This document shows, in pieces, positions 18,313 through 34,346 of a stretch of DNA of 64,000 nt. The notes beneath the pieces were generated by a model. It ran no database searches, was not told the origin of the DNA, and saw only the letters and a list, made by a program, of their open reading frames with translations. The position numbers and the translations under genes are program-made. Numbering within the stretch: position 1 is the first letter of the stretch; each line of letters opens with the position of its first letter. Origin of the DNA: a virus; IMG/VR virus record IMGVR_UViG_3300017989_000078; one strand, written 5' to 3'.

Positions 18313-19365
18313 ATGGGTTACGTCATCGGAGATGCGCTCACTGAACTGAAGAACTTGGAGCCCAACACCTTCAACTGTGTTGTCACGTCTCCCCCATATT
18401 GGGGACTTCGAGACTACGGCACCGGCCGATGGACTGGAGGGGATCCGGACTGTCGTCACGATAGTCGAGAGGGAGTATGCGCGTCGTGTGGAGCGCGTCA
18501 TGTGGATTTCCAGTTGGGATTGGAGCAGACGCTGGAAGAATACCTCGAGAGAATGGTCGAGGTGTTTGCTGAGGTTCATCGAGTACTGCGGGATGACGGA
18601 ACCCTGTGGTTGAATATCGGAGATTCATACATCCGAAGTAGCACTTCAGGTTCTCGCGATTCAAACAGATGGCCTAAGCAGAGTTGTAAGTTAATTAATC
18701 CAAAGCGGACTAATAGTCCTCACGGGTCACTGAAGATAAAGGACATTGCCGGAGTACCGTGGAGACTGGCCTTTGCTCTCCAGGATTATGGCTGGTATTT
18801 ACGCCAGGACATTATATGGCACAAATTAAACCCCATGCCGGAGAGCGTGAGAGATAGGTGTTGCAAATCTCATGAGTACATATTTCTGCTCACCAAGAAT
18901 GAGCAGTATCATTTCGATGCCGATGCCATCAAGGAGCCAGTCACGGGGACCGCCCATAGTAGAGGGAGTGGTGTCAATCCGAAAGCCAGGAAGAGCAATA
19001 CTGGTGTTGGATGGGGATATACTGAAGGCAAACCAAAACCCAGAGCCAAGCAGAACTCGTCATTCTCAGCAGCAGTCAGTGGTCTGGTAGATTCTAGAAA
19101 TAAACGCTCTGTCTGGCAGGTAGCCACTCATCCCTATAAAGGATCCCATTTCGCGACGTTTCCCCCTGAACTTATCAATCCGTGTATTCTGGCAGGGTGC
19201 CCGGTAGGAGGGAAAGTACTCGATCCTTTCCTGGGCAGCGGGACAGTCGGAGAAGTATGTGAGAGATTGGGAAGGGATTGGTTTGGGATCGAACTGAACC
19301 CAGACTATGAATCGTTGATTCAGGAACGAACAGCTCAGATTGGACTGTTCAATACCGAGAGATGA
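18313..19365 (+). CDS. beta-class DNA methyltransferase (N4-cytosine or N6-adenine)
   Basis: VVTSPPYWGLRDYG (SPPY motif IV) lies N-terminal. DPFLGSGTVGEV...GIELNPDY (motif I) lies C-terminal. AGGAG RBS. Confidence 0.85.
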   Translation: MGYVIGDALTELKNLEPNTFNCVVTSPPYWGLRDYGTGRWTGGDPDCRHDSREGVCASCGARHVDFQLGLEQTLEEYLERMVEVFAEVHRVLRDDGTLWLNIGDSYIRSSTSGSRDSNRWPKQSCKLINPKRTNSPHGSLKIKDIAGVPWRLAFALQDYGWYLRQDIIWHKLNPMPESVRDRCCKSHEYIFLLTKNEQYHFDADAIKEPVTGTAHSRGSGVNPKARKSNTGVGWGYTEGKPKPRAKQNSSFSAAVSGLVDSRNKRSVWQVATHPYKGSHFATFPPELINPCILAGCPVGGKVLDPFLGSGTVGEVCERLGRDWFGIELNPDYESLIQERTAQIGLFNTER

Positions 19366-26911: not shown

Positions 26912-26959
26912 GCGCCGCAGCCAGGCGTGAAGAGAAAGAACCAATGGGAGGAGACACCT

Positions 26960-27964
26960 ATGAAGGAAAAGTTTTGTGATAAGAAATTCAGAGAGACAAC
27001 CCTGCAATTGATAGAAACATGTGCGGGGATCTTGGACGAATATCAGTCTGAAGGATACAAGTTGACGTTGCGTCAGTTGTATTACCGCATAGTTGCGTTG
27101 GATTTATTCCCTGATGACAGGAGATGGCGTTGGGACCATGACCGCCGCAAATGGTACAGGGATCTCAATGGAACAAAAAACGCTCTACCCAATTACAAAT
27201 GGCTTGGTGGAATAGTTTCTGACGCTAGAATGGCCGGATTATTTGACTGGGATATGATTGTTGATCGTGGTCGCGAGACCATAGAAAACTCACACTGGAG
27301 GCATCCTGGTGAGATTCTCAAGGACGCGAAGGCATCGTTCGGTATAGATAAATGGCGAGAACAGCCATGTCATGTAGAGGTGATGTGCGAGAAACAGGCG
27401 TTGGAAGGTATACTTGAGCCTGTCTGTCTTGAACTGGACGTTCCATTCTGTTCAAACAAAGGGTATTCATCGCAGAGTTTTATGTATCGAAAAGGCAAAG
27501 AACTAAGAATACACGCCGATAACGAAAAGAGTATTCATGTCCTATACTTTGGGGATCATGATCCGAGTGGTTTGGACATGGACAGAGATGTGGAGGAGCG
27601 TATCGGTTTGTTTTGTAACTATGAAGCATTTGGTGGTTATTACGAGTTGAAGCGAATTGCACTTACAATGCCGCAGATCGATCTCTACGATCCTCCTGAG
27701 AATCCAGCGAAGCAAACAGACAGCAGATTCGCCGAGTACCAAAAGAGACACGGCGATTCCAGTTGGGAATTGGATGCACTTGAGCCAAAGGTTCTGGCTA
27801 GATTGGTGCGGAATTCTGTTGAAGATCTGCGTAACGAACAACTTTGGCAACAGGCGTGCGAAGATGAAGAAAATATGCGTTGTGAGTTGGAAGAAATATT
27901 CAAAGGATACAATCCTGCCAAGTGGTTTAAACTGTGGAAGAAAAGGTTGGAACTGGAAAGATAA
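26960..27964 (+). CDS. TopoVI-A/Spo11-like protein (5Y-CAP tyrosine motif plus Toprim)
   Basis: LTLRQLYYRIV resembles the R-x-(L/I)-(Y/F)-Y catalytic-Tyr motif. VEVMCEKQALEGIL is Toprim Glu-like. VLYFGDHDPSGLDM is DxDPxG Toprim-like. GGGAGGAG RBS before ATG 26960. Confidence 0.65.
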   Translation: MKEKFCDKKFRETTLQLIETCAGILDEYQSEGYKLTLRQLYYRIVALDLFPDDRRWRWDHDRRKWYRDLNGTKNALPNYKWLGGIVSDARMAGLFDWDMIVDRGRETIENSHWRHPGEILKDAKASFGIDKWREQPCHVEVMCEKQALEGILEPVCLELDVPFCSNKGYSSQSFMYRKGKELRIHADNEKSIHVLYFGDHDPSGLDMDRDVEERIGLFCNYEAFGGYYELKRIALTMPQIDLYDPPENPAKQTDSRFAEYQKRHGDSSWELDALEPKVLARLVRNSVEDLRNEQLWQQACEDEENMRCELEEIFKGYNPAKWFKLWKKRLELER

Positions 27965-27981
27965 TATTGGAGGGAAAAACG

Positions 27982-28677
27982 ATGGTAGAGGCAGAAAAGA
28001 ATGTATTGTTGGTGTCGATAACGACCGAACCTGGATGTTGTTTTGATGAAGGCGAATTCCTGCTGGCTATTTACAGTATCGAAGAAGGCTGGATTGGGGA
28101 GGAAGATTTTGATCTGGTTGACGAATGCGTAGTTGAGAACTTGTCTTCGGGAGACCTTCCTGAAGAGGGTTCAACATGTTTTAAATTAACAGAAACCGGG
28201 GAATGGGAAGACGTCCGCTGGCTCAAGTACTACGAAATAACGGAGAGGCTTGGGGTGGCTAGCGAGGAATCTGGGTTGCTACTTGTTTCAGATGACAGCA
28301 CTAGTAGTGAGAAAGAGAAAAAAACTATTGAGCGAGCCCAGAAAGAAATACTTCGGCTTCGTAAACTGATAAGAGAGGATCATCCTGGTATCGGTCTGAG
28401 CAATATTGCCATGGCGCTTAGCGAACCGATGGAGTGTGGGCACCACGTGGACTGTCTCGATGACGATACAAGCGAATGTGGGTATTGTAAGGCGATAGCC
28501 GGTCGGGACGCGTTGCGCGAGGTCATGGAAGAGATCTCAATGACATCGACTTCTATGGCACCAGGATACAATGATGAAGTATCACATTATCGGCAAATCG
28601 CGCTTAATCTCATCGGCAAAGGCACTTGCGCGATCATGGATGTATTTGGGGAGGAAGACGCGGGGGAAGAGGGGTAA
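27982..28677 (+). CDS. acidic hypothetical protein
   Basis: GGAGGGAAA RBS before ATG 27982. Confidence 0.55.
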   Translation: MVEAEKNVLLVSITTEPGCCFDEGEFLLAIYSIEEGWIGEEDFDLVDECVVENLSSGDLPEEGSTCFKLTETGEWEDVRWLKYYEITERLGVASEESGLLLVSDDSTSSEKEKKTIERAQKEILRLRKLIREDHPGIGLSNIAMALSEPMECGHHVDCLDDDTSECGYCKAIAGRDALREVMEEISMTSTSMAPGYNDEVSHYRQIALNLIGKGTCAIMDVFGEEDAGEEG

Positions 28678-29273
28678 TGCGTGAGCTGGCACTTTTCGCG
28701 GGCGCTGGTGGAGGAATACTTGGAGGCAAACTCCTTGGATGGCGCACTGTTTGCGCTGTTGAAATCGAACCATATGCCCGAGACATATTGCTGGCTAGAC
28801 AGAACGACGGAAACCTTGAGCCTTTTCCAATATGGGACGATGTCAAAACCTTCGACGGCCGGCCCTGGCGAGGAATTGTTGACGTGGTTTCGGGAGGGTT
28901 TCCGTGCCAAGACATCTCATGCGCTGGAAAGGGCGCAGGTATCGAGGGAGAAAGATCTGGACTTTGGGGCGAAATGGCAAGAATTATCGGTGAGGTACGA
29001 CCGCCGTTTGCATTTATGGAGAACGTTCCGTCACTTCGGTTACGTGGTCTTGCCGTGGTCATCGCGGACTTGGCCGGCCTGGGGTACGATGCGAGCTGGT
29101 GTCGTGTATCGGCGGAGAACGTCGGAGCGCCCCATCGCAGGGACCGAATCTGGCTTGTTGCCCACTCCAACAAAGAGCGCGGCAAGCCAGGGACAGAATC
29201 AACCGGACGGAAAACGTGGGCAGACTCTAGTGGGAGCGGCCCGGGGGCAGACGTGGCCGACACCAAGAAATAG
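28677..29273 (+). CDS. DNA (cytosine-5) methyltransferase, N-terminal catalytic part (motifs I-VIII)
   Basis: LFAGAGGG (I), GGFPCQDIS (IV), ENVPSL (VI), APHRRDRIWLVA (VIII). The frame then runs into unrelated sequence and stops at 29273. Confidence 0.85.
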   Translation: MRELALFAGAGGGILGGKLLGWRTVCAVEIEPYARDILLARQNDGNLEPFPIWDDVKTFDGRPWRGIVDVVSGGFPCQDISCAGKGAGIEGERSGLWGEMARIIGEVRPPFAFMENVPSLRLRGLAVVIADLAGLGYDASWCRVSAENVGAPHRRDRIWLVAHSNKERGKPGTESTGRKTWADSSGSGPGADVADTKK

Positions 29274-29670
29274 TACTGGACTGGACAAATCAAAGAGGCA
29301 CTTGAATCTGCAAGGGGCAGTGAAGTTGTGGCCAACGCCGATCAAGACCGATGCACTCAAAAGGGGGAAGGTATCTCCACGTCCCGGAGCAATGGGATTA
29401 TCCGAGACACTGGGAGGACAGTTGAATCCTGAATGGGTTGAATTGCTGATGGGTTGGCCGTTGAATTGGACGAGTATGATTCCAATGAACAGGGAAGAAT
29501 ACGAAAGATGGCTCAGTACGATAGAAGACAGATTTGCAGACGATTCTTGGGAGGACGGCATCTCCAGAGTTACTAAAACAAAGGACAATAGTGTACAACG
29601 ACTCAAGTGCTTGGGCAACGGACAGGTGCCGTTATCGGCGGCAGTAGCATGGAAGATACTCAAAGAGTAA
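28681..29670 (+). CDS. C5-MTase C-terminal part (target-recognition region and motifs IX-X) in the +1 frame
   Basis: The C-terminal half has LLPTPT, TWPTPR, LWPTPI, LNPEWVELLMGWPLNWT and RLKCLGNGQVP. The ORF is open from GTG 28681, and an internal ATG at 29089 is a possible real start. See finding. Confidence 0.65.
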   Translation: MSWHFSRALVEEYLEANSLDGALFALLKSNHMPETYCWLDRTTETLSLFQYGTMSKPSTAGPGEELLTWFREGFRAKTSHALERAQVSREKDLDFGAKWQELSVRYDRRLHLWRTFRHFGYVVLPWSSRTWPAWGTMRAGVVYRRRTSERPIAGTESGLLPTPTKSAASQGQNQPDGKRGQTLVGAARGQTWPTPRNSTGLDKSKRHLNLQGAVKLWPTPIKTDALKRGKVSPRPGAMGLSETLGGQLNPEWVELLMGWPLNWTSMIPMNREEYERWLSTIEDRFADDSWEDGISRVTKTKDNSVQRLKCLGNGQVPLSAAVAWKILKE

Positions 29671-29738: not shown

Positions 29739-29796
29739 GAGAGAGTAATGTTTAGAGAATCTACAGACCAATTTGCAAGTAACGGAAGGAGGACCG

Positions 29797-30162
29797 ATGA
29801 AGAACTTCGGAATCATGATGTTGTTCTGCATACTGGCGACGGCATTATTCGCATCGAGCGCGATGGCCAACGTCGATATGAACGAACCGACGCTGGGAAA
29901 GGGGGTGACCGCCGAAATTGTTCCGATGGTCACCACTGCCATGCCGGCAGTACAAGAGGCGAAAGCGATCGCGATCCGCGGCGCAGACGTCGAGGTAACT
30001 GTGCTGAAGTGTTTTACGGGACCCGCCGCAATGGCGAAACAACACATAAGAAATCAGATAGTTGCCAGCGAAGATCAATACACAACGAACAGAAACTTGC
30101 CCATGCTATGGCGAGGATCTACAGCCCAAGACTCCCCTATCCACCAATGGATCAAATCCTGA
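29797..30162 (+). CDS. small secreted protein
   Basis: GGAAGGAGG RBS; signal-peptide-like MKNFGIMMLFCILATALFASSAMA. Confidence 0.6.
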   Translation: MKNFGIMMLFCILATALFASSAMANVDMNEPTLGKGVTAEIVPMVTTAMPAVQEAKAIAIRGADVEVTVLKCFTGPAAMAKQHIRNQIVASEDQYTTNRNLPMLWRGSTAQDSPIHQWIKS

Positions 30163-33139: not shown

Positions 33140-33430
33140 ATGATAGAAGTGCCAGGACGTGACATGCGACCGAAACTGGGATTCTGGGCACCAGGTCACT
33201 ACCTGCGGGGATGTATTCTGTGTGATGGCAAGTTCATCGGAGATAAACGCGCACAAGTTTGTGCGGACTGTGCCTACGTCCCTGGCAACTCATCATTACT
33301 GGTGCGTGGTGCCATTATAGTGTCTGGGTTTGCTCAAGAGATGTACGCCAAGTATTTAATGCTGAAGGTTCGGCATATTGTGGAACAACGCAAGAAACGA
33401 CAGGAGACTGGAGGAGGGGACAATGGGTAA
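33140..33430 (+). CDS. hypothetical Cys-containing protein
   Basis: GGGAGGGA RBS. Confidence 0.5.
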   Translation: MIEVPGRDMRPKLGFWAPGHYLRGCILCDGKFIGDKRAQVCADCAYVPGNSSLLVRGAIIVSGFAQEMYAKYLMLKVRHIVEQRKKRQETGGGDNG

Positions 33431-34346
33431 GCGCACAAGTGAACAGTGGATAGAATGTTTTAAATCACATCCTTTGACTGCAACTCTAGCAAGGCACCAG
33501 ATGATGGATCTGGCTAGAGCATTGGAGGGATCAGATCCGACTCTGGACACGGACGAAGAGGTCCAACTTTGTATGTGTCCGTTTTGTCTCAAATGGGGAC
33601 CGGATGCGTTTTTTGTAGAAAACGACAAAGCCAAAGCACAAGTTGTGACTGACTATGAAGTTGGACATTGGGTTGTGTGTCGTCATTGTCTGACAAGGGG
33701 GCCTATTAAAAGGTCGCATGATGACGCAGTTAGGGCGTGGAATGATCGTGAGTTACCTGAACTAACCGGTGTTGAAGATGTAGCCACCGAGGAACTCTAT
33801 TACATCAGCAGTGGTGATATAATATCTGAAAGAATCCTGTGGATAGTGAAAGGTAATCAGATTTGTAGTTCAGATCTGGCTGGTGCTTCGGTTTTTACCC
33901 TGGATGAAGCTATGGCATACTTGCAGGACGAGAACGGCTGGCGTTACTGGAAGATTTTTCCAAAGAAGTACGTAGACCAGCAATGTGGCAGGGTCGTGTT
34001 GAGTAGTAATTTTGACGATTCGATGGCGATAGAAGCAGAACATCGAGACGTAGTCAAAGGCGATGAGACAGAGGACGATATAGAAGAACCTTTGAGCAGG
34101 AAGTACAAACAACTGAAGCACGACTATCAGGCTCTACAAAACCAGGAAATGCTAAAGAGCAAGGATCTCAGAAGATATGGTGCGTTGGATCTATCAGAGT
34201 TTGAGACACATTTAATGGAAACTGTTTCACAGTGCATTCCGGATGAAGGTGTCGAGCGACATCTGAAGAGGCAACTGGACTTGGTTCATAAACTACAATC
34301 AAAGTACAAAAGAGGTGGGGACGATGAAAGAACAAGAACTACGTGA
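33423..34346 (+). CDS. Lar-like zinc-ribbon domain protein with a long C-terminal extension
   Basis: MCPFCLKWGP...VVCRHCLTRGPIKRSHDDAVRAWNDRE. ATG 33423 overlaps the upstream stop. Confidence 0.55.
   Translation: MGKRTSEQWIECFKSHPLTATLARHQMMDLARALEGSDPTLDTDEEVQLCMCPFCLKWGPDAFFVENDKAKAQVVTDYEVGHWVVCRHCLTRGPIKRSHDDAVRAWNDRELPELTGVEDVATEELYYISSGDIISERILWIVKGNQICSSDLAGASVFTLDEAMAYLQDENGWRYWKIFPKKYVDQQCGRVVLSSNFDDSMAIEAEHRDVVKGDETEDDIEEPLSRKYKQLKHDYQALQNQEMLKSKDLRRYGALDLSEFETHLMETVSQCIPDEGVERHLKRQLDLVHKLQSKYKRGGDDERTRTT

Follow-up and report, generated by a model that had tools for sequence, protein, structure and literature searches.

How a single C5-cytosine DNA methyltransferase comes to be written in two reading frames of the same DNA is the question raised by positions 28677-29670 of the IMG/VR virus record IMGVR_UViG_3300017989_000078, analysed here as one stretch of 64,000 nucleotides (nt) that we call the window. 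An open reading frame (ORF) carrying the first motifs of such an enzyme stops before the enzyme is complete, and the remaining motifs lie in the +1 frame, which is open from 4 nt past the first base of the start codon of the former. We regard it as probable (about 0.7) that the locus specifies a split C5-cytosine DNA methyltransferase of two subunits, each encoded by its own frame of one shared piece of DNA. The alpha subunit, starting at ATG 28677, would supply the S-adenosylmethionine-binding and catalytic motifs I-VIII, and beta, in the +1 frame, would supply target recognition through PTP repeats, motif IX and, in the variant found in the window, motif X. By analogy with M.AquI and M.EcoHK31I, for which this was demonstrated by experiment, the chains would associate non-covalently into one active enzyme, which may serve to shield the phage DNA from host restriction. 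It is from constraints on the sequence that we infer the translation of both chains and their assembly.

Organisation of the two reading frames

The alpha gene (28677..29273, plus strand, from ATG 28677 to TAG 29273) encodes 198 amino acids (aa) in frame 0 and corresponds to a catalytic domain without motif X. Motifs I (FAGAGGG, 28695-28715), IV (GFPCQDIS, 28896-28919), VI (ENVPSL, 29019-29036) and VIII (RRDRIWLVA, 29136-29162) of the C5-cytosine DNA methyltransferases were found by pattern in canonical order, and motif VIII is followed by 36 unconserved residues and the stop codon. The Pfam family PF00145 matched alpha with E=3.6e-32, over positions 2-168 of the 324 in the profile only, and the alignment obtained in a search of Protein Data Bank (PDB) sequences spans residues 13-170 of M.HhaI. 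The NCBIfam model TIGR00675 (E=6e-24) remained under its curated cut-off because half of the protein matches.

The long beta ORF (28681..29670, plus strand, from GTG 28681 to TAA 29670) encodes 329 aa. It begins with a leader (28681..29088), which is the +1 reading of the DNA of alpha motifs I-VI, stop-free and under weak sequence constraint. The putative target-recognition region is variable (29155..29421, conserved in the +1 frame in relatives) and holds three (L/W)PTP repeats, LLPTPT at 29155-29172, TWPTP at 29251-29265 and LWPTP at 29326-29340. It is followed by motif IX, LNPEWVELLMGWPLNWT (29422-29472), assigned by pattern, by an AlphaFold2 (AF2) model and by a weak profile alignment, and by motif X, RLKCLGNGQVP (29599-29631), which is in the beta frame and was assigned by pattern and from homologues. 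The junction of the frames, at 29155-29165, separates motif VIII from the first of the PTP repeats, and about 590 nt are open in both sense frames. The two sense ORFs and an antisense ORF of 233 aa (28634..29335, minus strand) had been listed in the first-pass annotation, made from the letters of the window; all three are present, and the motif content given there for both sense frames was confirmed.

Homologues also point to a methyltransferase function for beta. The PHROG family phrog_1008, named DNA methyltransferase, matches its residues 50-327, and in single-chain relatives with a PF00145 match motifs I-VIII, the PTP region, motif IX and motif X all stand in one frame. When the whole +1 ORF was modelled with AF2 from an alignment of 121 sequences, only the region of motif IX was confident, with a predicted local distance difference test score (pLDDT) of 88-95 over beta residues 241-300.

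Relatives of the split gene

Viral loci (n=163) were collected with two methyltransferase queries, the frame-0 N-terminal domain (N-domain), which takes no account of the +1 frame, and the single-chain relative P0123. In 128 of the 163 loci both ORFs are full-length; frame 0 has motif X, and +1 has the PTP repeats and motif IX. In these full-overlap loci the distance from the beginning of motif IX to motif X is always 22-23 codons, so that one piece of DNA serves for both motifs. When phages were searched with blastn, the matches were Pseudomonas phage phPA-G and Acinetobacter phage ABMM1, each of which carries such a pair of full-length ORFs with a 4-nt offset. Their frame 0 gives a complete-looking methyltransferase, MNELALFAGAGGG...GNGQV, and their +1 ORF reads MSW(L)(F/Y)S...WG.M...SGLWxTP...LNPxWVEWLMGWPxGWT. 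Paired ORFs are present in cultured phages of Salmonella (P22-like), Pseudomonas, Acinetobacter, Klebsiella, Vibrio, Ralstonia and Microcystis. For the +1 protein 4355 homologues were found, and a Pfam domain is absent from all of them; among the best 120 the N-terminus MSW occurs in 107, and 32 have motif X behind motif IX within one ORF.

The window represents this minority form, in which alpha ends past motif VIII and motif X comes after motif IX in the +1 ORF. This layout was seen again in three independent relatives (L178, L179 and L181, 38-50% identical in beta), which come from different samples and whose alpha ORFs have 168, 166 and 229 codons. A split enzyme resembling M.AquI had been among the explanations first offered for the locus, and these three relatives bear it out; the common form of the family matches M.EcoHK31I, a published enzyme of two polypeptides. 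The 198-aa alpha product itself (P0122) is on record, identical, from three contigs of three sources; a search for the contig records of this exact product found none.

The two-frame arrangement is kept down to 44% identity in the N-domain and is gone at 32-34%. It was found in genomes and metagenome-assembled genomes (MAGs) labelled Planctomycetota, Burkholderiales, Patescibacteria, Acidobacteriota, Chloroflexota and Alphaproteobacteria. There are also relatives with a single ORF, at 45-53% identity, and their halves are fused at differing points, so that these single-chain forms look like secondary fusions. In one of them (P0126) the region of motif VIII is duplicated, with one copy per frame, and the beta segment is retained.

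Some further arrangements were observed. In a group of variants (P0125, P0131, P0133, P0139, P0149, P0180, P0184, P0194, P0231, L102 and L162) the N-domain is fused in frame with the variable region plus motif IX, but motif X stands in another frame; such cases could reflect gene decay, errors or yet another architecture. Five scattered two-frame copies (L195, L196, L198, L205 and L207) lie on one 1.63-Mb contig of a Dehalococcoidia MAG (CBDFJT010000002.1), where the gene may be carried by a repeated mobile element. Public annotation is inconsistent. The records of phPA-G and of Ralstonia phage Gerry mark the +1 ORF alone, as a hypothetical protein, other phage records mark frame 0 alone, and RefSeq entries of E. 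coli give only a 'DNA cytosine methyltransferase'. The two frames were not annotated jointly in any record examined, PP083311.1 and MT740739.1 included, and a literature search of incomplete coverage did not find a description of this phage family.

Conservation of each frame

Frame-by-frame identities were obtained from codon alignments of 31 non-redundant genes with full overlap. Over motifs I-VIII frame 0 is dominant, with an identity of 0.66-0.89 against 0.38-0.53 in +1, and the least conserved positions are the third positions of frame 0. The variable region shows the reverse, with 0.17-0.21 in frame 0 and 0.31-0.34 in +1, and so does the stretch of motif IX (0.59 and 0.70); in both the third position of the +1 frame is the least conserved and +1 is dominant. 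The last 20 or so codons, which hold motif X, return to frame 0 (0.64 against 0.40 in +1), whose third position is again the least conserved. The large domain of C5-methyltransferases is composed of motifs I-VIII plus motif X, and the small domain of the variable region and motif IX (PMC3404938); the mosaic of frames equals this division.

Constraint at the level of single residues is clear in both frames, as far as can be read from the alignments, only at the stretch of motif VIII and WGxM...SGLWPTP and at that of motif IX. The former lies in the window at 29071..29172 (plus strand), where alpha reads GYDASW...GAPHRRDRIWLVA, which includes motif VIII, and beta reads WPAWGTMRAG...ERPIAGTESGLLPTPT. 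Beta residues P132, G135, G140 and G158 are invariant in the beta alignments, and P132, W134 and G135, just 5' of the internal Met, are invariant or nearly so and need fixed synonymous codons in frame 0. Four-fold sites of frame 0 are indeed fixed there, with GCC at Ala133 in 31 of 31 genes and GGG at Gly136 in 38 of 39.

Stop codons in the overlapping frames

Stop counts, and the start counts given below, were made on 92 non-redundant loci with less than 90% nucleotide identity. Over the N-domain the +1 frame is free of stops in 89 of the 92, when 3.4 such loci would be expected from synonymous shuffles, which predict 2.87 stops per gene in +1; the +2 frame holds 8.75. The converse is found in the variable region (mean 106 codons), where frame 0 is unconserved and nevertheless stop-free in all 73 genes, against 3.69 stops expected from shuffles and 5.07 in the third frame. 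Each frame is kept open beyond its own domain, and both chains therefore appear to be translated over their full length. The mean identity at four-fold sites was 0.47 in a subset of 39 sequences, so that there were many chances for change at these sites.

The window shows the same by itself. Synonymous-codon shuffles of its own frame-0 gene gave P=0.0018 for the absence of +1 stops over the 136 codons that precede ATG 29089 and P=0.0006 when all 198 codons were taken; with the codon usage of the neighbouring genes the openness of +1 has P=0.0002. The longest +1 open run in nine other genes of the window is 41-129 codons. The first-pass annotation had suspected that the long +1 stretch exceeds chance, and in this it was right. 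It had counted the antisense ORF as part of the same excess, and that part has to be abandoned. In the antisense phase 1.26 stops are expected in the window, for which a Poisson estimate makes zero stops roughly a one-in-four event, and the 39 relatives have 2.85 stops against 2.90 expected, the phase being stop-free in the window alone and in 0 of the 38 others. With stop counts at chance level, and with no Pfam match to the ORF at 28634-29335, the antisense ORF was rejected as a coding gene and is taken as a chance open frame outside the system.

Start codons of beta

The region of the twin starts (28669..28683, plus strand) is compact. It consists of a Shine-Dalgarno-like GAGGGG (28669-28674), the stop codon TAA of the upstream gene (28675-28677), the alpha ATG (28677-28679) and the beta GTG (28681-28683), and GAGGGG ends 2 nt before the ATG and 6 nt before the GTG. 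The TAA is in the beta frame and overlaps the alpha ATG (TAATG), and the GTG comes one codon later, so that termination-reinitiation could feed both starts. At the +1 codon 4 nt past the first base of the alpha start, 73 of the 92 loci have ATG and 12 have GTG, that is a start codon in 85. Codon 2 of frame 0, for Asn, is AAT in 71 loci and AAC in none, and a Shine-Dalgarno-like motif lies upstream of the twin starts in 76 of the 92. Beta is probably initiated at GTG 28681, behind a ribosome-binding site shared with alpha, and the first 135 or so of its codons would then yield a passenger leader that is hydrophilic and for the most part unstructured.

Another start had been proposed earlier at ATG 29089. 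Among the 73 relatives in which a WGxx motif can be recognised, 72 have an internal Met at one of two adjacent +1 codons, which upholds this proposal. The overlying frame-0 pairs for Tyr/Phe-Asp are TTTGAT (32), TATGAC (24), TTCGAT (8), TATGAT (8) and TACGAT (6), and among the relatives there is no such codon pair without an ATG. This flexibility of position suggests that the internal ATG serves for initiation and that its Met is not kept for structural reasons. In the window (29081..29091, plus strand) the ATG at 29089-29091 is preceded by GGGG at 29081-29084, and a shorter beta of 193 aa is probably made from it as well.

The beta leader and the weight of the evidence

Several results weigh against the split enzyme as proposed here, or against parts of it. 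In searches of Pfam, NCBIfam and PDB sequences with beta and with an alpha-beta chimera, only motifs I-VIII were recognised. Motifs IX and X of beta were assigned by pattern, from the single-chain homologues and by a non-significant profile alignment, in which LNPEWVELLMGWPLNWT is placed weakly on residues 272-296 of M.HhaI (RKLHPRECARVMGYPDSYKV). The AF2 model of the conceptual chimera, from an alignment of 17 sequences, had a mean pLDDT of 48 and was too poor to serve as a check of the fold. In M.EcoHK31I, moreover, the predicted target-recognition domain was placed in alpha (PMC2836561; PMC3404938), whereas here the corresponding conservation is in the beta frame. As for the leader, AF2 gave its residues 1-100 a pLDDT of 41-54 and no secondary structure. 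The excess constraint on it is modest and below what raw column counts had led one to expect. Finally, the conserved internal ATG, together with the Mycobacterium phage DarthPhader, whose +1 frame is closed upstream, indicates that a leaderless beta can suffice; the use of GTG 28681 is therefore something that we infer from stop avoidance and from the conservation of the start codon.

The constraint on the leader was estimated by a tree-based simulation with uniform rates over 48 strict four-fold sites of the 39-sequence subset. Across the leader (motifs I-VI) three sites had a major allele of at least 0.85, against 0.59 such sites in the simulation (P=0.025), and the standard deviation had P=0.002. 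Residues 101-145 were modelled as four short strands with a pLDDT of 49-70, and a Foldseek search of the model of the +1 ORF against PDB gave no matches. Codon usage in the N-domain differs from that of the flanking genes, with GGA at 0.52 against 0.17, CGA at 0.42 against 0.13, TTA+CTA at 0.05 against 0.17 and ACG at 0.05 against 0.26, a skew which affects the +1 reading only. The leaders are hydrophilic, with a grand average of hydropathicity of -0.48. In view of the weak sequence constraint and of the low AF2 confidence, we read the leader as a segment that is probably translated but would be largely passenger, except from about W134 on. The genuine dual coding suggested for this DNA thus stands as regards the openness of the frame and its start codon; over the catalytic motifs the same weak constraint and low confidence do not clearly indicate two independent functions.

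That the leader is itself functional, for example by docking beta on alpha, by holding beta inactive until assembly or by setting the alpha:beta ratio through the twin starts, is possible in our opinion but rather doubtful. The idea is kept because the leader is retained in single-chain forms, because a divergent clade has a motif of its own there and because the make-up of this segment has been shifted by codon usage. In six of six single-chain relatives the leader ORF is still open, although their variable region can now be reached without it; as these fusions may be recent, its openness there decides nothing on the passenger idea. A search for further such cases with a single-chain query yielded mainly genes of the two-frame type. 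The divergent clade (L195, L199, L203 and L208, 44-50% identical in the N-domain) has the beta N-terminus W(V/I/L)Y(I/V)P, its alpha and beta starts are separated by 2-5 nt, and the DNA of this motif, which lies upstream of the constrained part of alpha, is unconserved in the alpha frame. Should the leader prove functional, more than 135 codons would form a conserved overlap on one strand with both readings functional, in thousands of phage and prophage genomes and in several bacterial phyla, and few overlaps of this kind in prokaryotic viruses would be as long and as widespread.

Alternative explanations

The internal start leads to an alternative for beta, namely that it is made from ATG 29089 only, in line with the annotation of DarthPhader gp22 and with what has been described for M.EcoHK31I and M.AquI, and that 28681-29088 is untranslated or irrelevant in the +1 frame. 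The position-flexible ATG of 72 of 73 relatives and the Shine-Dalgarno-like GGGG agree with this, as do the low AF2 confidence and weak constraint of the leader, and DarthPhader has the same split with +1 closed upstream of its position 1443. Furthermore, the beta subunit of M.EcoHK31I tolerates N-terminal truncation and uses internal Met codons (PMC2836561). We nevertheless think it unlikely, as it leaves unexplained why the leader should be stop-free in 89 of 92 loci when 3.4 are expected, why a start codon should stand exactly at +4 in 85 of 92 with AAT in 71 and AAC in none, and why the frame should stay open down to 44% N-domain identity and in several phyla. Nor does it account for P132, W134 and G135, which lie upstream of the Met and are near-invariant by way of fixed frame-0 codons.

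Two other explanations would make the locus a single methyltransferase gene, and we consider them less probable than a beta made from the internal start only. The +1 recoding that had been envisaged would be a programmed frameshift after motif VIII, leading to one complete enzyme of about 333 aa. The junction at 29155-29165 is placed exactly as this would require, with motif VIII on one side and the PTP repeats on the other, and the single-chain relatives share the overall order of motifs. However, the junctions of the four window-type genes lack a conserved shift site such as a slippery codon with an in-frame stop or rare codon at a fixed place, their codons past motif VIII differ and their frame-0 stops come 5, 6, 36 and 67 codons past that motif. 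The common form of the family would moreover require a second shift, of -1, between motifs IX and X, and a frameshift needs neither an open +1 frame upstream nor an open frame 0 across the variable region, both of which are maintained. On these grounds recoding is very improbable. Transcriptional slippage was rejected by eye, as a long A/T homopolymer is lacking near the junction. An indel of 1 nt near 29150-29170, which would have broken a single-ORF methyltransferase and left a pseudogene or an artefact of assembly, is slightly less probable still. Single-ORF relatives at 45-53% identity do exist, and the rare odd layouts in metagenomic contigs (L089, L102, L162) could be errors or decay, but the split recurs in independent relatives of different samples, the best 120 homologues of beta include 32 with this form, and the identical alpha ORF comes from three contigs of three sources; an indel, a pseudogene or an assembly error is therefore disfavoured. 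It also tells against a broken gene that all motifs are kept in both halves, that the +1 frame is selected to stay open and that the single-chain relatives look like secondary fusions.

Genomic context

The window is part of the genome of a tailed phage and has every gene on the plus strand, among them those for a DnaB-like helicase, the large terminase, a portal protein and a tail sheath. The gene 5' of alpha (27934-28683, plus strand, 247 aa) has no assigned function and is in the beta frame; it shares an overlap of 31 nt with a topoisomerase-like gene (26927-27964). Just 3' of beta there is a small ORF (29773-30162, plus strand) with a signal-peptide-like N-terminus, MKNFGIMMLFCILATALFASSAMA, and without a PHROG match. 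A second, unrelated DNA methyltransferase gene is found at 18313-19365 (plus strand; phrog_67, E=9e-71), and an ORF at 33378-34346 (plus strand) has a weak match to Lar-like restriction alleviation proteins (phrog_599, E=3e-7). The two methyltransferases and the Lar-like ORF together suggest a set of anti-restriction genes.

Comparison with known systems

The two genes of M.AquI overlap in different frames. Its alpha subunit carries motifs I-VIII, and its beta subunit the rest of the variable region and motifs IX-X (PMC3404938), and by motif layout the division between alpha and beta in the window is the same. The differences are that the beta ORF of the window reaches back to 4 nt past the alpha start, with a conserved start codon there, and that the gene belongs to a phage and is not adjoined by a recognisable restriction gene.

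The alpha subunit of M.EcoHK31I contains motifs I-VIII as well as motif X. Its beta subunit, which contributes motif IX, is specified by a second frame that lies wholly within the alpha gene, and the enzyme requires the two subunits to be active (PMC2836561; PMC3404938). This is, by layout, the arrangement of most relatives of the window, in 128 of the 163 viral loci and in the cultured phages of seven host genera. The window itself departs from it by having motif X in the beta frame and an alpha that ends at 29273, before motifs IX and X. In addition, the beta ORF of the family covers the whole alpha gene (230-330 codons) and is not an internal segment, as are the 176 codons of beta in M.EcoHK31I.

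DarthPhader, an actinophage of Mycobacterium, has two genes annotated as DNA methylase (gp21 and gp22, NC_054785.1, 1085-2096), which overlap by 101 nt. As in the window, the change to the +1 frame comes right after motif VIII, and the annotated start of gp22 is the ATG equivalent to 29089, followed by LPTP repeats, EWMMGWPEGWVT and motif X. With its +1 frame closed further upstream the leader is absent, and its N-domain is 40% identical to that of the window.

Same-strand genes overprinted in viruses are similar in that a second frame is open with a conserved start across divergent relatives. They differ from the present case, where the two frames give complementary domains of one enzyme and not an old gene and a new one, and where each chain would bear a passenger dictated by the functional domain of the other. 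For research on overlapping genes this is a natural case of 600-1000 nt of same-strand double reading with twin starts, and the stop-free leader is its unexplained and most interesting element.

M.AquI and M.EcoHK31I have been treated as two isolated curiosities. The relatives of the window show that such an arrangement defines a large family of phage and prophage genes, spread over the seven host genera and the six bacterial groups listed above. Neither Pfam nor NCBIfam has a model for beta, and its ORF is sometimes called a hypothetical protein. The engineering of methyltransferases could draw on many natural split enzymes, with fused, M.AquI-like and M.EcoHK31I-like versions in one family. 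As judged from sequence comparison, the two-frame split is real and selected, and the window is an M.AquI-like variant of a large and mostly M.EcoHK31I-like phage family.

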